64,000 nt of DNA from Patescibacteria group bacterium. GTDB taxonomy: Bacteria; Patescibacteriota; Patescibacteriia; Patescibacteriales; JBAZCA01. This document shows, piece by piece, positions 1-21,054 of the stretch; the first letter of the stretch is position 1, and each line of letters begins with the position of its first letter. The DNA lies in assembly GCA_041661505.1 (NCBI GenBank), contig JBAZUF010000001.1, positions 241,576-305,575 on the forward strand, in the 5' to 3' direction. Both the position numbers and the translations under genes were made by a program. Under the pieces are notes generated by a model. The model saw nothing but the letters and a program-made list of their open reading frames with translations, ran no database searches and was not told where the DNA came from.

Positions 1-1921
1 ACCCGTAAGCCATGACTTTGACAGCCGCCGCGTCTTTGGCGTCATTCATATCCGCCACGCGCTTATATATTTTTACAAACTGATCTTTGGCTTTCTTTTC
101 GGCCGCGTCGCTTGTTACGCTTGGGAACCGGCCGTTGGCAATTTTAATCGCTTCGGTTAATTCGGCTTCGGTTTCCGGCAATTTGTCAAAAGCGGCTTTG
201 TAAGAATATATAACGGCCGCCCGCTCCCCTTCTCCTAATTTCTGGGTGTTAGCATCAACGCCGTAAGTGATAAAATTATTAATAGCCGTTTCCATTTTTT
301 CCGTTATTTTTTTGAATTCTTTAACTAATCTATCTAGATATTTTATTTTCGCCGCCTGTTCTTTTACCGTATCCCTTAAAAGCTTTAGTTCGGACAATAT
401 TTCATTAACCTTGTCGTTTTGCAGTAAATTGGCCTTGTCTTTAATTTTATTTATCTGCGCGTCATAATTATCTTTCGCTAATTCAGACCCATCGCCGCTT
501 GATTCGTCTTCGCTATAGCCGGTACAGGCCCCGTTTTCGCAGGACGCGCATTTTACCACTTTAAACTTATCATTTACTCCACTGCAGTAGGCTTCGGCTA
601 TGTAACAGCCTGCTCCTGAACATTTATCGGCCGAGGAATAATATTTATTGCCTGACTGGACGTAAAAATTATTGCCATCTTGAGTAGCCGCGACGACAAC
701 GCATTTGTCGTTGAATTTAAGGATATCGTTATATTTGACTGTTGAAACGTACCCCGCCTGGCCGTAAATTTTACCGCCGTCAGAATCCTTGCAGTAGCTC
801 TCTTTTTTGCATCCTTCGGGTCCGCAACAGGCGCCGAGCCAGCAGCCATGCTCGCATTTAATGTTCTCCTGGTGGACATATCCGTCCGAACCGCAAGTAA
901 TTTCATTTAATTCATTGCCGCCCAAACAATAATCATCAAAGCTTTCCGTCAGGTTTAACGCTTTGCCCCAGTAAGCTACTCCCTTGCCGGTCCCTTTTAC
1001 ATTTACATCTTTACCGTTATCCGAGTCTGTACATTTTTTGCTTTCGCTATTATCAGTGATCACAATCGTGCTTTGTATACTATTGTTGTTCTCGTTTGAT
1101 TCTTCCAGCTCATTTTTATTATCGGCGGTAAATTGCATATATAGATTGCCGCCGGTAGAAAAATTGCCTACCCAGGAAAAAGTAATTGATTCATTGGTTT
1201 TCAGCGGATTGGCGGCCGTCGGTAAGTTCCGGCTGGCCTGATAAGAATTTATGTCAGGTGTCACTTTATTAAACTTAAAATTCTGGCCGGCTAAATTAAG
1301 TTCAAAATCAGTAAGTCCTTTAGCATCAGTCAAATCAGCGCCAAGGTTTTTAATAGTTACGGACATTGTCCCATCCACTCCGGTTTCCATTTCCGGAGCG
1401 CTGAATTTGAGGCTGGTAATGGCAAGATCTGGAGCGGTTGCGCTTTCACTTCCTATAACAATAGTCTTTGTCAGGGAGTTATTGGCGTCATTTGACTCTT
1501 CTAGCTCATTGGCGTTATCGACCGTATATGTTAATATCTTGTTTCCCGCGATGGAAAATTTTCCTACCCAGGAAAAAGTAATTGATTCATTGGTTTTCAG
1601 CGGATTGGCGACGGTAGGCAGGGCTCGGCTGGTTTGGAAATCAGTAATACTTGGAGTAGCGCTGTTAAATACGAATCCCTGAAGCGACAGGTTGAAATAA
1701 GTATTTGTTAAACCCTTCGAATCGGTTAAATCGCCTCCTAAATTTTTAACAGTTACCCAAATAGTGCCATCTTCGCCTGCTAGCCCGCCGGGTGAGGTAA
1801 ATTTAATATCTGTAGCCGCTAGATCGGGTTTAGCAACTTCTGCCTTAAGTTTTATAGCAACTCCAAAAATAGACAAGCACAAAATAGCTGACAAAATAAA
1901 ATACTGAATTTTTTTATACAT
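1..1921 (-). CDS. Secreted surface protein, C-terminus runs off the window start. It has a signal peptide, two tandem CARDB-like domains, a Cys-rich module and a coiled-coil/conserved tail.
   Basis: Hand translation of the minus strand from the ATG at 1921..1919 (MYKKIQYFILSAILCLSIFG...) stays open to position 1. It is absent from the ORF track because no stop lies in the window. Two domains each end in ELEESN-xxNN, which is CARDB-like. The tail reads ...LGEGERAAVIYSYKAAF... Confidence 0.75.
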   Translation of the reverse strand, partial: MYKKIQYFILSAILCLSIFGVAIKLKAEVAKPDLAATDIKFTSPGGLAGEDGTIWVTVKNLGGDLTDSKGLTNTYFNLSLQGFVFNSATPSITDFQTSRALPTVANPLKTNESITFSWVGKFSIAGNKILTYTVDNANELEESNDANNSLTKTIVIGSESATAPDLAITSLKFSAPEMETGVDGTMSVTIKNLGADLTDAKGLTDFELNLAGQNFKFNKVTPDINSYQASRNLPTAANPLKTNESITFSWVGNFSTGGNLYMQFTADNKNELEESNENNNSIQSTIVITDNSESKKCTDSDNGKDVNVKGTGKGVAYWGKALNLTESFDDYCLGGNELNEITCGSDGYVHQENIKCEHGCWLGACCGPEGCKKESYCKDSDGGKIYGQAGYVSTVKYNDILKFNDKCVVVAATQDGNNFYVQSGNKYYSSADKCSGAGCYIAEAYCSGVNDKFKVVKCASCENGACTGYSEDESSGDGSELAKDNYDAQINKIKDKANLLQNDKVNEILSELKLLRDTVKEQAAKIKYLDRLVKEFKKITEKMETAINNFITYGVDANTQKLGEGERAAVIYSYKAAFDKLPETEAELTEAIKIANGRFPSVTSDAAEKKAKDQFVKIYKRVADMNDAKDAAAVKVMAYG

Positions 1922-6742: not shown

Positions 6743-7807
6743 TCACGAAGAAACATGCTGGCCCTGTAGCGGTATTCCGAGGCTTTTCATTTTCATGGAA
6801 AGCGTGGTCCGGTTCATGCCCAGCATTTCCGCGGCCTTTTTCTTATTGCCATCAGTTGCGGACAACGCTTCCAAAATATACTGAATTTCCACCTCCTTTA
6901 AAACTGACGGCAAGTCGATTATTTCACCCTTCGCCAAAAAATTCGTATCATGCCCGACCGAATAGGCCTTTCTTTTCTTCTGGGCGATTGAATTCCCGAA
7001 GACATCAACGTCCAACGTCTCTCTCGAGGGATAGTTCACCAGAGCGTTAAGCACGGCTTTGCGGATGTCCCTGGCGTTGCCCGGCCATTCGCGCTCCAAG
7101 AGGTATTTTTCGGCTCTTCTGGTAATCTCCGGAGCAGAATCTAATTGAAGTTCGCTCGAAGCTTCAAGCAGAAACTTCCGGGCCAGAGGAAGAATGTCTT
7201 CAGGGCGTTCGCTGAGCGGAGGGATGTGAATCTGATACGGAAATCGGCAAAGCAGATCTCCGCGAAACTTTCCCTGATCAACCATTTCCTGTAAATCGCG
7301 GTTGGTGGCCGCGATTACTCTCGTGTTTATCCGCCGGGTCTTGTTGCTGCCTACTGGCTGGATTTCCCGTTCTTCGAGAACCCGAAGCAGTTTTGCCTGG
7401 ACGTTTGGGGAAATTTCTCCGATTTCGTCCAAAAGCAGGGTTCCGTCGGTCGCGGCTTCAAACATTCCCACCCGTCTGTCTTTTGCACCGGTAAAAGCCC
7501 CCTTCTCATGGCCAAACAATTCGGATTCCACCAAAGTTTCGGAAAACCCCGAGGATAAGACTTTAATGAAAGACCCATTTACCCTCGCGCTGAACCGAGC
7601 CAGTAGCCCCGCGACTAGTTCCTTGCCGGTACCACTTTCTCCGGTGATGAGTACCGGGAAGCTTGTCGGAGCAATCATCTCCGCTCTTTCAAGAACCCTT
7701 TTCATCGCCGGACTCTCGGCGATTATTTCACCTGCCGCGTCCGAGAGGCTATAGCCCGATCGGATGGGCACGACTTTCCTTGACTCCTCCATATTCCCCT
7801 CCTTCAA
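6743..7807 (-). CDS. Sigma54-dependent enhancer-binding AAA+ protein without a sensor domain (PspF/HrpS-like), with a C-terminal Fis-type HTH
   Basis: 354 aa with Walker A GESGTGKE, an intact GAFTGA loop, Walker B LLLDEIGE, RVIAATNRDL and FRGDLLCRF…PPLSERPEDI, plus the HTH KKKAAEMLGMNRTTLSMKMK. Only about 35 aa precede the AAA+ core. Confidence 0.9.
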   Translation of the reverse strand: MKEGNMEESRKVVPIRSGYSLSDAAGEIIAESPAMKRVLERAEMIAPTSFPVLITGESGTGKELVAGLLARFSARVNGSFIKVLSSGFSETLVESELFGHEKGAFTGAKDRRVGMFEAATDGTLLLDEIGEISPNVQAKLLRVLEEREIQPVGSNKTRRINTRVIAATNRDLQEMVDQGKFRGDLLCRFPYQIHIPPLSERPEDILPLARKFLLEASSELQLDSAPEITRRAEKYLLEREWPGNARDIRKAVLNALVNYPSRETLDVDVFGNSIAQKKRKAYSVGHDTNFLAKGEIIDLPSVLKEVEIQYILEALSATDGNKKKAAEMLGMNRTTLSMKMKSLGIPLQGQHVSS

Positions 7808-17289: not shown

Positions 17290-18267
17290 TTAGCGATCGA
17301 GGATTGTTTCAAGGCTGACGCTTACTTTATCTAGAAAATAAGTGCGCTGGAATTCAGACGTTGCCCCAAATCCAAAAGCCATCCATACCTTGCCGGAAGC
17401 ATCGGAGGTCAATTGTGCCGAATAGGAATATTTTTTCCACTGGCCCGCGACCTCATCAGTCCTTCCGATTATACTAAAATCCTTTTCTTTTAAGGGATTT
17501 TTTAATCCGGCATAAGCTAGCACTGGCCACTGGTTAGAGTCGGAATCATTTTCACTCCAAAGATAAAAGCTGATCTCGCAGTTAATTCTTGAGTTTGGAG
17601 CTACTTCAAAAGGGCGCTCAACCCAAATTGTGCCATCGTCATGGTTCCCGTCAAGGTAGCCAGCCAGAGAATAAACCCCGTCATACGCCTTTTGCTTAGA
17701 ACGTTTTATGCTCCAATTAAAAATACAACGAGAAGCATCCGTCTCGCAATCTATTTGGTGTTTTGGAACCCACCCGCCAAAGCCGCTTTCGAAGCTTTCC
17801 GAATAATCTTTATTACAGTCTTTCGGGCAAGTATTGTCCCTCTTCTCCACTGAATCGCAATATTTATCTCCGCATTTTCCCCCGCAGTAGCAAGTTCCAG
17901 CTTTTCTATCTATTAAATCACACTTCGGCTTGTCGCCTCCTACGACCATGGGACAGATGAGTCCACTGCAGTCTTTTTCGGTTTTGCATGTAATATTCCT
18001 CTTTTTCGAAGCGTCGGCATCTCTTCCTCCGGTTTCTAAATCAGTTGCCGGCGGCCTGGAATTGGAAACTTTCGCGTAAGAGCTCATGAAAGCTTCTGAA
18101 TCGCTATTTGCCATAAAGGCGAACGCCCCGAAAATACCCGCGAACAAAGCGATAATAAATACGCCTTTCCAGGTTTTGATTTCCATCTTTTGGAGCTGCG
18201 AATAACTTTTTGAGGCCAATTTATCAACCGGCCTCTTCCCGGCTGCATTGTTTGCCATAGTTTTCAC
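17290..18267 (-). CDS. Membrane-anchored or secreted Cys-rich protein with a C-terminal beta-sandwich-like domain
   Basis: 325 aa with a TM/signal anchor (GVFIIALFAGIFGAFAFMA), a cluster of about 14 Cys (CKTEKDCSGLICP…CYCGGKCGDKYCD…CPKDC) and then about 160 aa with no recognisable motif. Confidence 0.65.
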   Translation of the reverse strand: MKTMANNAAGKRPVDKLASKSYSQLQKMEIKTWKGVFIIALFAGIFGAFAFMANSDSEAFMSSYAKVSNSRPPATDLETGGRDADASKKRNITCKTEKDCSGLICPMVVGGDKPKCDLIDRKAGTCYCGGKCGDKYCDSVEKRDNTCPKDCNKDYSESFESGFGGWVPKHQIDCETDASRCIFNWSIKRSKQKAYDGVYSLAGYLDGNHDDGTIWVERPFEVAPNSRINCEISFYLWSENDSDSNQWPVLAYAGLKNPLKEKDFSIIGRTDEVAGQWKKYSYSAQLTSDASGKVWMAFGFGATSEFQRTYFLDKVSVSLETILDR

Positions 18268-18273
18268 TAATTA

Positions 18274-18729
18274 TTATTTAATTAATTTAATTATGTCGGC
18301 CAAGGTTACAATCCCGACTAATAAACTCTCTTCATTCACAACCGGAACCGTAAAAAGCTTTTTTCTCCTGAATAGCTTATACAAATCCTTAATCGGCCGG
18401 TTTTCTTCTATAGTAATGACTTTTTTAGTCATGATATCACCGGCAGTCATCCCCAGCAGGGCTTGATGAATTTTTTTATCTTTATCTTTCGTTGCCGCAT
18501 TTAAAATCTTTGTTTTCCGCAAGATATCGATATAGGACGGCAAATAAATATCCACTTCATCCTTGGTAAAAAAATCCGTTTCCGTAATTATCCCTAGTAT
18601 GCGCCCCTTTTCATCAACAACCGGAATCCCGTGTATTTTATATTTCATTAAAAGACAAGACACTTCCTTAATCCCCGCCTCCGGGCTGGCTGAAATGACT
18701 TTTTTTGTCATAATATCCTTTATCCGCAT
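18274..18729 (-). CDS. CBS-domain pair protein
   Basis: 151 aa with two CBS repeats (IMTKKVISASPE…HGIPVVDEKGRILGIITETD and IMTKKVITIEE…VPVVNEESLLVGIVTLADI). Confidence 0.85.
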   Translation of the reverse strand: MRIKDIMTKKVISASPEAGIKEVSCLLMKYKIHGIPVVDEKGRILGIITETDFFTKDEVDIYLPSYIDILRKTKILNAATKDKDKKIHQALLGMTAGDIMTKKVITIEENRPIKDLYKLFRRKKLFTVPVVNEESLLVGIVTLADIIKLIK

Positions 18730-18845
18730 AATTTTTTCTGGCCGTTCCTCATAGTTAGCGCCGCGAGGATCAGGCGCATTGTTCAGTTTATTAATTATAT
18801 AATAGCATATTGCGGAAGAGCCTGCAATATTATATCAGGCAAGGC

Positions 18846-18874
18846 TTGACGCGAGCTGCCGGGAATTCTACAAT
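18846..18874 (+). promoter_or_regulatory. Sigma70-like promoter of the leader/GNAT transcription unit
   Basis: TTGACG (18846-18851), 17-nt spacer, TACAAT (18869-18874). Confidence 0.55.
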
Positions 18875-18895
18875 ATAAGCACGAACAATATTTAT

Positions 18896-19039
18896 ATGGA
18901 AACTAAAAGCCAAACAATCTTAATTCTCAACCGCCGCCGCACCTCAAATATTCACTTGAGGTTGTTTGACCGCGCTCAAAATCAATAACTAATAAATAAT
19001 TTGAACTCTTCCACGCAACCTCAAGCGAGGTTGTTTTTT
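18896..19039 (+). promoter_or_regulatory. Candidate transcription attenuator: 30-codon leader ORF with CGC-CGC-CGC plus alternative hairpins A:B, B:C and C:D followed by a U-tract
   Basis: The leader is METKSQTILILNRRRTSNIHLRLFDRAQNQ (18896..18988). Segments are A 18941-18947 ACCTCAA, B 18956-18964 TTGAGGTTG, C 19016-19024 CAACCTCAA and D 19027-19033 GAGGTTG, followed by T6 at 19034-19039. Confidence 0.5.
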
Positions 19040-19071
19040 GTTCTTTCCATTAACTCAAGGAGGAGAGAGTC

Positions 19072-19572
19072 ATGCGCATCGTTCATAAAACGCCTCTTGG
19101 CCCGGTCGAAATCTGCAAAGCCCGCACAGAGGATGCATTCCAGATCAGCGAACTGACCCGGCAGTCAAACCTTATCCACCGGACGCCGGAAGAAATTGAA
19201 AGCCGGATAGCCGATTTTCTGACGGCTAAAATCAGCGGGACCGTATTAGCCTGCGTCGGCGCGAAGCATTATGATTTGGACGCGGAAATAATCGCCCTCC
19301 GGACGGCCCCGAATTTTGAGAACTTGGGGCTCGGGAAAATTGTCCTGGGCGTGATTCGCGCGGAATTGGTAAAGCAGAAAAAAAGAAAAATATTCGCGCT
19401 CACGACCGAAATCGTCGCGCAAAAACTTTTTTTTCCGCTGGGCTTTATTAAGGTCGGGATCCAGCTTTTCGGGCCTAAAATTTTAAACGATTGCCTGAAG
19501 TGCCCGAAGAATATCATCGGACCGGAAGGCAATCACCTTTGTAACGAAATTGCTGTTCTCTACCAGGGCTAA
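19072..19572 (+). CDS. GNAT acetyltransferase, short ArgA-like (COG1246-type) N-acetyltransferase
   Basis: 166 aa with strong SD AAGGAGG at 19057-19063. The GNAT core is EIIALRTAPNFENLGLGKIVL, and the C-terminal DCLKCPKN…CNEIAV Cys motif resembles short N-acetylglutamate-synthase-like proteins. Confidence 0.8.
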   Translation: MRIVHKTPLGPVEICKARTEDAFQISELTRQSNLIHRTPEEIESRIADFLTAKISGTVLACVGAKHYDLDAEIIALRTAPNFENLGLGKIVLGVIRAELVKQKKRKIFALTTEIVAQKLFFPLGFIKVGIQLFGPKILNDCLKCPKNIIGPEGNHLCNEIAVLYQG

Positions 19573-19609: not shown

Positions 19610-19647
19610 AAAAACAAAAGGGCGGACTAAAAATCCGCCCTTCTTTT
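19610..19647. terminator. Bidirectional terminator between GNAT (+) and the LigD-PE gene (-)
   Basis: Stem GGGCGGA(19620-19626)/TCCGCCC(19634-19640), flanked by an A-run upstream and TTCTTTT downstream. Confidence 0.7.
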
Positions 19648-19662
19648 ATACATAAAGAAAAA

Positions 19663-20199
19663 TTATTTTTTCATCTTTACGAGTAACCATTGCTCTCCTC
19701 CTCTTTCTTTTCTAAACCGGGTCAGGGCAAAAGCGCCTTTTAATTTTTTCCCGTTCAGATTAATAGCCAGGTGGCCTTTTTTTAGTGCGTCTTCCATTGG
19801 CGCGTCCAAGAGATTTTTATAGGTTCCTTTATCCCAGATTTCTACCGTACCGGCGCCATATTCGCCTTTGGGAATCACGCCTTTAAAATTCATGTAATCA
19901 AGCGGATGGTCTTCCACTTTTATCGCGAGTCGTTTCACCGCCGGATCAAGCGACGGCTCCTTTGGCACGGCCCAGGAAACTAAAACGCCGGCCACTTCCA
20001 GCCTAAAATCATAATGCAAATGCGAGGCTTCATGCTTTTGGACGACAAACCGGCTTTTTCCAGAGTCAGTTCCAGTCTTTGCCATGCCAAGCTTCCCGCC
20101 TTTAGTCTTGCCTGCCGGTCCAGGCTTAAGCTTGCCCTTTGGTTCCGGCGTTTTTTTAAAATCCCTTTTCTTTAAATATTTTTCCAGCCCGAGAGGCAT
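19663..20199 (-). CDS. Stand-alone DNA ligase D 3'-phosphoesterase (LigD PE/LigD_N) domain protein
   Basis: 178 aa, FVVQKHEASHLHYDFRLE…WAVPKEPS…VEDHPLDY…GEYGAGTVEIWDKGTY. Confidence 0.85.
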   Translation of the reverse strand: MPLGLEKYLKKRDFKKTPEPKGKLKPGPAGKTKGGKLGMAKTGTDSGKSRFVVQKHEASHLHYDFRLEVAGVLVSWAVPKEPSLDPAVKRLAIKVEDHPLDYMNFKGVIPKGEYGAGTVEIWDKGTYKNLLDAPMEDALKKGHLAINLNGKKLKGAFALTRFRKERGGEQWLLVKMKK

Positions 20200-20209
20200 A
20201 GGGATATAA

Positions 20210-20869
20210 TTACTTAATTATTTTCCCGCTAAAACTTTTCGCCAGATCAATAAAATATTCTTGCCAGTCTTCATTTTTCAGCTTTAAAATCATGCGCGGA
20301 TAATCCTTCACTTTTTTTGCCAGAAGGAATTGGCTGCCCAGCTGTAAATAGTCAACGTGCCAATCGAATTTTATTTTGGCTTTTTTTACCAAGTCGTCGA
20401 TTTTCCAGCCGGTCTTTTTCATAATAAGATATAAATCAATAAAATCCCTCGAACGGGGATTTTGGTAAATCGTAAAAAGCTTGTTAACCGCGATATCCTT
20501 CAGGCTGTCAATAAATAATTTATTAATTTTGGCCTTCTTCTCAATTCTCGGAAACGGAAAATAGGTGAATTCGGTTTTAATAACCTCATTTTTTATATAA
20601 AGAAAGATGAGGTTGCGGTTGAAGCTCTGTTCATAATCAACTTTTTTTATCCCTAACCGCTTTTTATTTTTCGCAAAAAACACGCTGATTGCCTGAAGGC
20701 CGAATTCTTTCTCGGAAAAAAAATCCAGGTCTTCGGATAAGCGGTGTTTTAAATAATATTCAGCTAACGCCGTCCCGCCGGTTAAATAAAAACGTCGGCA
20801 AATCTCGTTATCATTGCCGATTGCCTCAAGAATCTTAAGTTGATTCGCGCTTAAGATTGTTTCGGCCAT
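20210..20869 (-). CDS. Nucleotidyltransferase AbiEii/AbiGii-family toxin (DUF1814)
   Basis: 219 aa, YLTGGTALAEYYLKHRLSEDLDFF, the typical AbiEii N-terminal NTase motif. Confidence 0.82.
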   Translation of the reverse strand: MAETILSANQLKILEAIGNDNEICRRFYLTGGTALAEYYLKHRLSEDLDFFSEKEFGLQAISVFFAKNKKRLGIKKVDYEQSFNRNLIFLYIKNEVIKTEFTYFPFPRIEKKAKINKLFIDSLKDIAVNKLFTIYQNPRSRDFIDLYLIMKKTGWKIDDLVKKAKIKFDWHVDYLQLGSQFLLAKKVKDYPRMILKLKNEDWQEYFIDLAKSFSGKIIK

Positions 20870-21054
20870 AAAAGCATTTTTAAATATTCCTTCTTATTAA
20901 TATCCAAATTAAGAGCTTTCCAGTATTTTTTCAGCTCTTCGCGCTTTATTTTTTTTCCGCCCAAACCAAAATTAACCATCTGCTCTAACCGCCAGATGGC
21001 ATACCCGGTTTTGTCTTTCTTTAATTCGGTTGTATCGACCGACCAATTTCTCAT
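20851..21054 (-). CDS. Small protein overlapping the AbiEii gene by 19 nt; putative cognate antitoxin
   Basis: 67 aa. The call rests on position (overlap with the toxin start) and size only. No motif was recognised with certainty. Confidence 0.45.
   Translation of the reverse strand: MRNWSVDTTELKKDKTGYAIWRLEQMVNFGLGGKKIKREELKKYWKALNLDINKKEYLKMLLWPKQS

Follow-up and report, generated by a model that had tools for sequence, protein, structure and literature searches.

A predicted arginine-sensing leader-peptide attenuator upstream of a GNAT acetyltransferase gene in Patescibacteria

Leader-peptide attenuation has been described for the most part in Proteobacteria and a small number of Gram-positive bacteria, where it responds to Trp, His, Leu, Thr, Phe or Ile/Val, and members of the Candidate Phyla Radiation (CPR) are commonly portrayed as nearly devoid of amino-acid biosynthesis. 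What, then, is a small open reading frame (ORF) with three consecutive arginine codons, overlapping a set of complementary RNA segments and followed by an intrinsic terminator, doing upstream of an acetyltransferase gene of the GNAT family in a Patescibacteria group bacterium? The locus lies in a stretch of 64,000 nucleotides (hereafter the window; contig JBAZUF010000001.1 of assembly GCA_041661505.1, positions 241,576 to 305,575 of the forward strand), and coordinates are counted from the first letter of this window. A reading of the DNA alone (the original prediction) had proposed attenuation of the trp/his/leu type keyed to arginine. This proposal is supported by the conservation of the Arg run and of the alternative pairings, by folding with a masked ribosome, and by the arginine-biosynthesis genes and Arg-specific T-boxes found with the same leader in related genomes. 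We consider it very probable that the element is a ribosome-mediated leader-peptide transcription attenuator that senses charged tRNA-Arg and controls a single-gene operon, whose product resembles the short form of N-acetylglutamate synthase (NAGS). The features of the locus are the following:

18846..18874, plus strand: sigma70-like promoter TTGACG-N17-TACAAT (TTGACG at 18846-51, TACAAT at 18869-74; 10/12 in the promoter scan)
18896..18988, plus strand: leader-peptide ORF of 30 codons without a Shine-Dalgarno (SD) sequence (ATG at 18896, TAA at 18986-88)
18911..18923, plus strand: A0, upstream anti-antiterminator arm CAAACAATCTTAA, complementary to B at 13/13 positions, including 2 G-U pairs
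18932..18940, plus strand: regulatory Arg codons CGC CGC CGC (codons 13-15), read in the sequence
18941..18947, plus strand: A, downstream anti-antiterminator arm ACCTCAA (partner at 18956-62)
18956..18968, plus strand: B, 5' arm of the antiterminator, TTGAGGTTGTTTG, the common partner of A0, A and C
18976..19004, plus strand: distal helix of the antiterminator in the predicted fold, TCAAA (18976-80) with TTTGA (19000-04), a span that includes the leader stop codon at 18986-88
19012..19024, plus strand: C, CACGCAACCTCAA, which serves the antiterminator as its 3' arm (with B) and the terminator as its 5' arm
19015..19039, plus strand: intrinsic terminator (stem 19015-22 with 19027-34, loop AAGC, T6 at 19034-39; hairpin placed at 19015-34 by the terminator scan)
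19057..19063, plus strand: SD sequence AAGGAGG of the GNAT gene, 8 nt upstream of its ATG at 19072
19072..19572, plus strand: the regulated gene, a 166-residue GNAT acetyltransferase (PF00583), short-NAGS-like, with three invariant C-terminal Cys
19616..19644, found by the scan on both strands: bidirectional terminator hairpin that closes the single-gene operon

The leader ORF encodes METKSQTILILNRRRTSNIHLRLFDRAQNQ, with five Arg. Three consecutive Arg have a probability of about 0.003 in a random 30-residue peptide of this genome's composition. Of the Arg codons in this genome, 24% are CGC, and rarity of this codon was rejected for that reason as the driver of stalling. The core of B (18956-64) is TTGAGGTTG and that of C (19016-24) is CAACCTCAA; D is GAGGTTG at 19027-33, and T6 follows it. 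The original prediction had placed the promoter exactly, the leader ORF with its CGC codons and five Arg correctly to the base, and segments A to D with their T6 terminator where they are found here; promoter and terminator scans agree with it, and the AAGGAGG sequence and GNAT ORF that it named downstream are both present. Its four-segment model nevertheless missed a second anti-antiterminator arm, A0, and the perfect 9-nt B:C pairing that it described, although present, is in fact part of a 13-bp helix (18956-68 with 19012-24; 12/13 positions paired, one mismatch) supplemented by the distal helix. B has thus three alternative partners (A0, A and C), and the Arg codons are flanked by A0 on one side and A on the other. 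As C overlaps the terminator stem, antiterminator and terminator are mutually exclusive. Transcription is predicted to start a few nucleotides past the TACAAT box.

The following sequence of events can be proposed. A ribosome would start on the SD-less leader soon after transcription begins. When Arg-tRNA is plentiful, it would pass the three CGC codons and cross B toward the stop codon at 18986, so that B would be either covered or re-paired behind the ribosome with A0 or A. C, left free, would then pair with D, the terminator and its U-tract would form, and RNA polymerase would stop near 19040. When Arg-tRNA is scarce, the ribosome would stall with a CGC codon in its A site, burying A and the 3' part of A0. 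Sitting between A0 and B, it would leave B single-stranded and able to pair with newly made C through the 13-bp and distal helices; no terminator would form, and the GNAT gene would be transcribed. If the leader were not translated at all, A0:B or A:B would form and the terminator would act, a situation akin to super-attenuation.

Predicted folding of the window RNA is consistent with such a switch. The unconstrained minimum free energy (MFE) structure of 18880-19045 combines A:B with C:D, at -30.1 kcal/mol (z = -2.6 against shuffled sequences). Taken in isolation, A:B is worth -8.9, the B..C hairpin -18.1 and the terminator -11.5 kcal/mol, and the A0:B duplex -13.6 kcal/mol (z = -3.8 against shuffles); A0 is also recovered as a 2-mismatch reverse match of B. 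A (18941-47) falls inside the footprint of a stalled ribosome, while A0 is partly inside it, on the opposite side of the ribosome from B. When the transcript extends to the end of C, B:C is predicted whichever of the three CGC codons occupies the A site; with the ribosome over B or at the stop codon, the terminator is predicted. For the full leader with a stalled ribosome, a footprint from A-18 to A+11 yields the antiterminator with 12/13 pairs and no terminator. Thus, as the original prediction had anticipated, the free RNA adopts A:B and C:D, and a ribosome mask on the Arg codons switches the prediction to B:C. The same simulations were applied to 52 leaders of the family described below: with the ribosome at the stop codon the terminator is predicted in 48/52, and with the ribosome on the last Arg codon the antiterminator is predicted in 38/52.

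The window copy alone (a z-score of -2.6, a 30-codon ORF without SD) is weak evidence, and the locus could be seen as a fortuitous ORF lying across an ordinary 5' hairpin with its terminator, or across the terminator of an unannotated upstream transcript, with no amino-acid sensing. Related loci (referred to here by L numbers) bear directly on this. Nine clusters of homologues of the GNAT protein, with 44-57% identity, were retrieved from a large protein collection, and the flanking DNA was inspected for each. Eight of the nine are preceded by the same leader, which combines a small ORF starting with ATG, three codons for Arg, B, C and a terminator. The remaining one (L003, 48% identity) has no leader upstream, so that the association of leader and GNAT is not universal. 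Leader peptides from this protein-derived set include:

L005: MNIFNQTILSISRRRTSIIRLRLFERAQK
L004: MWIFHKLALSIVRRRTSIFRLRLFDSA
L001: MAKNQIYTIINRRRSTHTIFLRLFVSV
L011: MKYFFITIQIITRRRPSNSLRLFEGA

In these loci the Arg triplets are synonymous: CGC CGC CGC, CGC CGC AGA, CGT CGC CGA, AGA CGC CGT and CGC CGA CGC all occur.

A wider search used the nucleotide pattern TTGAGGYTGTTTG-N35-60-CCTYAA-N8-14-TTTTT, which demands neither an ORF nor any Arg codon, on metagenome and species-genome collections. After de-duplication it gave 58 leaders and 16 matches of a chance class (17 loci were excluded, of which 16 could be analysed). These chance matches served as an internal negative control and are not family members. 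An Arg run of at least two codons is present in 52/58 leaders and one of at least three in 44/58. It ends 12-21 nt upstream of B, uses all six Arg codons in 27 codon combinations, and occurs in three different frames with respect to B. In all but one of the 52 leaders that carry it (51/52) it belongs to an ORF that starts with ATG, and its first Arg invariably falls at codon 10-16. Leader ORF, extended B:C pairing and Arg triple are all missing from the chance matches, and an Arg pair occurs in 3/16 of them; the seven B:C positions that the pattern leaves free are paired at 94% in leaders versus 54% in chance matches. Eight matches from the genome collection belong to groups other than Patescibacteria (Geofilum, Campylobacter, Chitinophagaceae, Aquimarina, Bacteroides, Microcoleus, Moritella, Verrucomicrobia), and all eight are of the chance type. 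The metagenome-assembled genomes (MAGs) with true leaders bear the names Moranbacteria, Parcubacteria, Paceibacterota, Saccharibacteria or 'Patescibacteria group', and three are labelled just 'bacterium'. Since the related loci differ in their flanking genes, they are not assembly duplicates. More than 50 distinct loci retain the ORF with its Arg run, the spacing and also the alternative pairings; the chance pattern matches have none of these. These comparative data effectively refute a chance origin, to which we assign next to no probability; preservation of the Arg run and of the alternative pairings in relatives, on which the original prediction stood or fell, speaks strongly in favour of attenuation.

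A covariance model, R1, built from an alignment of family members (A1, below), finds one copy in the window (18906-19042, 105.6 bits) and one extra tandem copy in L072. No further leader copy was found in the window, either with R1 or by a 2-mismatch search for B, whose other B-like matches in the window are its own partners A0 and C. Two complete RRR leaders stand in tandem before one GNAT gene at L020:1777-1909 and 1946-2074 (identical in L067), and a second such pair before one GNAT gene is found at L072:7183-7306 and 7345-7468.

Alignment A1 (MAFFT, 28 diverse leaders) shows that the pairings themselves are maintained. In the 13-bp B:C helix, 94.8% of cells are paired; since B is fixed, only one side of this helix varies (U-A/U-G/C-G). 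For the distal helix the figure is 85%, with compensatory CG/UA/UG changes at one pair. In the terminator, 89.5% of cells are paired, and GC<->AU double changes occur at two pairs, in 8 sequences each. When the partner is shifted by 1-3 columns, pairing falls from 92% to 29-54%. The anti-antiterminator is less uniform: A:B in the register of the window is paired in 68% of cells across the 28 leaders, its arm being variable in relatives, and about one third of the family has an A0-like arm.

B itself is invariant save for one Y position in all leaders, including the loci retrieved by protein similarity only. This conservation goes beyond what pairing needs and is seen even in loci found through proteins of 44-57% identity, so that one might suppose that a trans-acting factor (a protein, or a tRNA as in the T-box) recognizes the near-invariant TTGAGGYTGTTTG, in addition to attenuation or in place of it, the leader ORF being secondary. 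The motif 'TTTGAAC', between the leader stop and C (18999-19006 in the window; A1 columns 106-114), is also conserved. Its TTTGA part, however, is one strand of the distal antiterminator helix, where it covaries with TCAAA opposite; pairing does not explain the conservation of the remainder. As for B, a segment with up to three partners (A0, A and C) would have its sequence frozen by that alone. Above all, binding of a factor leaves the codon-level conservation of the Arg run unexplained, and we regard recognition of B in trans as very unlikely.

What is conserved in the leader peptide can be seen from the reading frames. At first sight the peptide looks conserved as ...RRRxxxxxLRLF, which would suit an arrest peptide that stalls the ribosome on free arginine or on a ribosome-targeting drug, the GNAT protein being in the latter case a resistance acetyltransferase. 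The fungal arginine attenuator peptide and TnaC are precedents of the former type, the R-L-R of Erm/Cat-type leaders of the latter, and a leader with an attenuator before an acetyltransferase is a common layout among drug-inducible resistance genes. Moreover, several leaders contain RLRLF, which includes the R-L-R motif of antibiotic-responsive leader peptides (PMC8632094). In eight leaders, though, the ORF with the Arg codons does not share the frame in which B reads 'LRLF', while B, C and the terminator are unaltered. Frame-2 ORFs end at the TGA inside tTGAgg (L045, MAITKIHAIINRRRAAQTIF; L042, MEQTTQKNLRRRRYPESI; L074, MNLFQQTTLRRRNSRIT; each followed by the stop), frame-1 ORFs read ...FEVVC-stop (L072, MKFILATTQIVRRRKQDGFFEVVC), and the ORF of L008 ends two codons past the Arg run; in these two frames the peptides terminate, for instance, as ...RRRAAQTIF-stop or as ...RRRKQDGFFEVVC-stop. 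LRLF is encoded by B, and it is lost in other frames while B and the Arg run persist, which removes the arrest-peptide and small-protein readings. In the window the peptide has HLRLF, not RLR, and no conserved in-frame arrest motif is found. In addition, the T-boxes that stand in tandem with some leaders (see below) answer uncharged tRNA-Arg, and the argG and argH genes found downstream fit induction by starvation, not by arginine or drugs. The drug-sensing R-L-R reading was rejected on this frame analysis, and to nascent-peptide or ligand-dependent arrest as a whole we give very little credence.

Thus, in the sequences compared, the Arg run is the sole conserved property of the leader peptide, 'LRLF' being the translation of segment B. 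Selection appears to act on the decoding of Arg, and not on a nucleotide sequence or a peptide, and conservation at the level of codons suggests that the leader is translated. A generic sensor of translation speed, in which a poly-basic segment drags in the exit tunnel and reports translation capacity or transcription-translation coupling, deserves mention here, as runs of basic residues slow elongation and CGC is not rare in this genome. Yet Lys never takes the place of Arg in the run (peptides listed, about 50 leaders), and even degenerate runs, such as RRH, RRASR and RGRSR, retain Arg. An Arg-specifier T-box alongside the leader and arg genes downstream are no better accounted for by slow elongation, which makes such a sensor most improbable beside attenuation keyed to Arg.

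A sister leader with the same B, C and terminator has no Arg run; its peptide, MKKILTNSLPQPINPKSxLRLFVSV, includes three codons for Pro, and proline may be what this version responds to. It is conserved in at least 5 MAGs (L043:3015-3142, L062, L068:6943-7069, L077:1680-1807, L085:4940-5067), before an unannotated ORF of 110-116 residues. Its closest relative is the leader of L078 (..SSPRRRSPKLS..), which precedes a proB-like kinase and then proS, a proline-tRNA ligase gene (616 bits versus a cut-off of 558).

A second regulatory element bears on the polarity and specificity of the switch. In 16 loci an RF00230 T-box, scoring 97-135 bits versus a gathering threshold of 93, ends a few nucleotides before the ATG of the leader (L001:2556-2783, L008, L009, L013, L018, L026, L027, L032, L034, L035, L036, L042, L050, L051, L056, L063). 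The aligned specifier loops read GAA-CGC-G-C in 13/16 and GAA-CGA-G-C in 1/16; the remaining 2/16 read GAAA-CGA-G-C, where the specifier is CGA if counted from the stem and ACG if counted from GAA. We take the GAA-CGC-G-C register to be the same as that of GAA-GGC-A-C in B. subtilis glyQS. A T-box for uncharged tRNA-Arg in series with an RRR leader fixes both the specificity of the system (Arg) and its polarity (starvation = on). The window copy has a promoter in place of the T-box: Stem I, the specifier loop and the T-box sequence of RF00230 are absent from the window element in the Rfam scans. A cmscan of 18650-19200 against Rfam 15 at E<=10 returned noise only (CRISPR-DR, miRNAs, sRNA, 13-19 bits), and at the gathering threshold the whole window contains 4 tRNAs only, with no leader or riboswitch family.

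Genes controlled by the leader in relatives point in the same direction. The leader precedes argG and then argH in L017 (PF00764 and PF20979; TIGR00838 303.7, above the cut-off of 279.5), argH in L028 (TIGR00838 293.5 > 279.5), amino-acid kinases in L039 and L078, and, in L016, a GNAT-like gene with the gene of an ArgE/DapE-like deacylase behind it. Leader-controlled operons in L019 and L023 include an amino-acid racemase (TIGR00035, 170.6 bits versus a cut-off of 93.1); the L019 operon also holds a D-Ala-D-Ala-dipeptidase-like gene. About half of the leader copies precede GNATs of 156-183 residues with a C-terminal D-C-x2-C...C motif like that of the window protein, and several MAGs have two leaders on one contig. 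This distribution over many genes is, judging from these annotations, the signature of an arginine regulon. Four leader-controlled families have no Pfam or NCBIfam match: one of about 184 residues with an 'EAGHYY...GPT.WS' motif (L023, L042, L074), one of 229 residues (L080, L085), one of 400 residues (L058), and a small ORF of about 94 residues (89-98) between the leader and the GNAT gene (L009:554-838, L026, L051, L056; for example MKKIRRFVVLQVTF...). A protein of 561-567 residues (L025, L059, L079) has a match in its C-terminal part only, to a HAD-type hydrolase. All of these are candidates for arginine-related functions.

Taken together, these data allow a wider, tentative proposal, which we advance as possible and no more firmly than that: the RRR leader, with or without an Arg T-box ahead of it, may mark an arginine-starvation regulon across many Patescibacteria lineages, which besides argG, argH, amino-acid kinases and short-NAGS-like GNATs would take in the orphan families as parts of a non-canonical route of arginine synthesis or salvage. 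The T-box followed by the leader would then be a two-checkpoint transcriptional AND gate, where the same tRNA is read by two unrelated mechanisms.

What does the gene regulated in the window encode? The original prediction called it ArgA-like, and by profile and fold it is indeed closest to NAGS. Searched alone against the PDB, the window protein has a sole match, 3E0K (a NAGS C-domain, 1e-4), but a profile of 16 leader-associated GNATs matches ArgA of M. tuberculosis (5YO2/5YGE) at 5e-19, NAGS of N. gonorrhoeae (2R8V) at 5e-18 and 3E0K at 3e-16, other GNATs appearing from 4e-10 or weaker. PRK07757 and PRK12308 match 16/16 of these proteins and PRK07922 matches 14/16. An AlphaFold model of the window protein, built with 9 database homologues (A3), has a mean predicted local distance difference test (pLDDT) score of 82.7, below 50 in the Cys-rich segment 147-156; its top Foldseek matches are the NAGS structures 2R8V, 3D2P and 5YO2, with template-modelling (TM) scores of 0.69-0.74 and a small margin over other GNATs. 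Three cysteines, C141, C144 and C157 (window 19492-19542, residues 141-157), are invariant in 16/16 leader-associated GNATs. They make up the D-C-x2-C...C motif, which does not align to M. tuberculosis Rv2747, the top NAGS structure of the profile search, and they may form a metal site. A short N-acetylglutamate synthase is our best single guess for this protein, but a guess it is, one to which we give slightly less than even odds. With its size of about 165 residues and its GNAT fold, the protein resembles the short NAGS represented by M. tuberculosis Rv2747/ArgA and by the GNAT domain of ArgH(A) fusions (PRK12308); it differs from them by the extra C-terminal segment with the three invariant Cys.

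Several observations weigh against the interpretation developed so far and are best considered together. The putative NAGS scores below every NCBIfam cut-off for this function (full scores, for the window protein only: PRK07757 58.1/154, PRK07922 23/180, PRK05279 33.4/344, TIGR01890 24.2/202.9), and its assignment comes from similarity and from the regulon context. The 64-kb window contains no other arginine-pathway gene, tblastn of leader-regulated proteins having matched the GNAT gene only, and there is no argB/C/D/J near the latter. In the survey, B was fixed by the design of the scan, so that the conservation of its sequence is unbiased only in the eight protein-derived loci. The simple masking model fails to give the expected switch in about one quarter of the family. 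In the window itself, with a footprint from A-15 to A+12, the MFE of the full stalled leader is A0:B plus terminator (-25.0 versus -23.9 kcal/mol for the antiterminator), meaning that a 3-nt shift in the definition of the footprint flips the answer. The position of the leader stop codon raises a further difficulty. In most relatives it is 21 nt after the start of B, where a terminating ribosome would itself mask B. The stop codon of the window leader is 30 nt after the start of B and 18 nt past B; a ribosome there does not cover B, and termination must rely on the re-pairing of B with A0 or A. Finally, the window leader has no SD; the gap between its -10 box and its ATG is 21 nt, giving a predicted A/U-rich 5' untranslated region (UTR) of about 14 nt, so that this copy is not leaderless.

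With nearly equal energies for the full-length stalled state, the choice between the structures must be kinetic and steric, and we do not claim that the window switch is thermodynamically determined. C is transcribed before D, so B:C would form first; and A0:B would be unable to close around a ribosome that fills the 31 nt between the two arms.

The lack of an SD, which the original prediction took as its weakness, turns out to be a conserved trait of the family and not a defect. A promoter of the form TTGACN-16..18-YANNNT is found at most 80 nt upstream of the leader ATG in 23/31 relatives without a T-box and in 0/17 relatives with a T-box in tandem. In about half of those 23, the distance from the end of the -10 box to the ATG is only 4-9 nt; transcription is then predicted to start at or beside the start codon, and the mRNA of the leader would be leaderless or nearly so.

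Around the locus, the terminator scan finds 39 terminator-like sites versus 21.3 +/- 5.0 in shuffled sequences, an excess of about 2-fold which makes it plausible that intrinsic termination is in use in this genome. The gene that follows the GNAT operon (19663-20199) is on the minus strand and encodes a stand-alone LigD 3'-phosphoesterase domain protein (PF13298). Next to it are a gene for an AbiEii-type nucleotidyltransferase toxin (PF08843; 20210-20869, minus strand) and a small ORF of 67 residues (20851-21054) that overlaps the 5' end of the toxin gene. On the other side, a gene for a tandem-CBS-domain protein (18274-18729) is transcribed divergently from the leader promoter, and a 325-residue Cys-rich protein without Pfam match is encoded at 17290-18267 (minus strand).

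How does this element compare with known systems? An arginine-keyed leader-peptide attenuator matched no Rfam 15 family and no description in the literature searched, where there was likewise nothing on a leader peptide, attenuation or a T-box in Patescibacteria/CPR. The proposed mechanism is classical trp/his-type attenuation; as far as searched, the arginine-keyed Patescibacteria family has not been catalogued previously. The mechanism in itself is unsurprising; the interest lies in its specificity, the host lineage, the regulon and the tandem architecture seen in relatives. If our reading of these genomes is right, Patescibacteria/CPR use ribosome-coupled attenuation together with T-boxes to monitor the charging of tRNA-Arg, and such regulated sensing would mean that at least some CPR lineages make or salvage arginine under regulation. 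The leader, being short and recognizable, could serve as a regulon marker that lends an arginine-related role to orphan CPR families and to a distinct clade of short GNATs.

The enterobacterial attenuators trpL, hisL, leuL, thrL, pheL and ilvL/ivbL are the closest models. Like those of the trpL/hisL type, the present element has a translated leader (by prediction) with a run of codons for the end product, and mutually exclusive 1:2, 2:3 and 3:4 hairpins, the last of which is the terminator; a stalled ribosome is likewise predicted to select the antiterminator, with biosynthetic genes downstream, as are the arg genes in relatives. It differs from them in sensing arginine, in its Patescibacteria/CPR host, in the absence of an SD and the often leaderless mRNA, in the two anti-antiterminator arms that flank the regulatory codons of the window copy, and in the location of the leader stop inside B in some relatives. 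A comparative study assigned attenuators to the His, Thr and Phe operons and T-boxes to Tyr and Arg (PMC1262725). Pausing of ribosomes at Arg codons of a small upstream ORF (uORF) reports arginine limitation in Salmonella speF, through orf34 (PMC6386406), and in Staphylococcus aureus rbfL (PMC13009471). As in these two cases, where the codons are consecutive or rare, Arg codons in a uORF act here as the presumed arginine sensor. The outputs are different: mRNA stability via RNase G, Rho-dependent termination and unmasking of the ribosome-binding site (RBS) in speF, and RBS occlusion in rbfL. Unlike the present family, neither has an intrinsic terminator/antiterminator pair or controls arginine-biosynthesis genes.

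With the Arg T-boxes (RF00230) our family shares the signal, uncharged tRNA-Arg, the antitermination output and, in relatives, the very same transcripts; a T-box, however, binds the tRNA directly and needs no translation. For the arrangement of the two in series, the B. subtilis rtpA/yczA operon described by Chen & Yanofsky (2003/2004) reportedly offers a parallel, with a T-box and then a leader peptide containing Trp codons. In this anti-TRAP operon, uncharged tRNA-Trp induces both transcription and translation (PMC4027176). The 16 relatives with a T-box resemble it in having, on one transcript, a T-box followed by (predicted) stalling on a cognate codon run. The second checkpoint in the anti-TRAP operon is the initiation of rtpA translation; here it is a second transcription terminator/antiterminator, and the window copy has no T-box. 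The tandem of T-box and attenuator in these relatives thus appears to be a rare natural case in which one signal is read by two serial transcriptional mechanisms.

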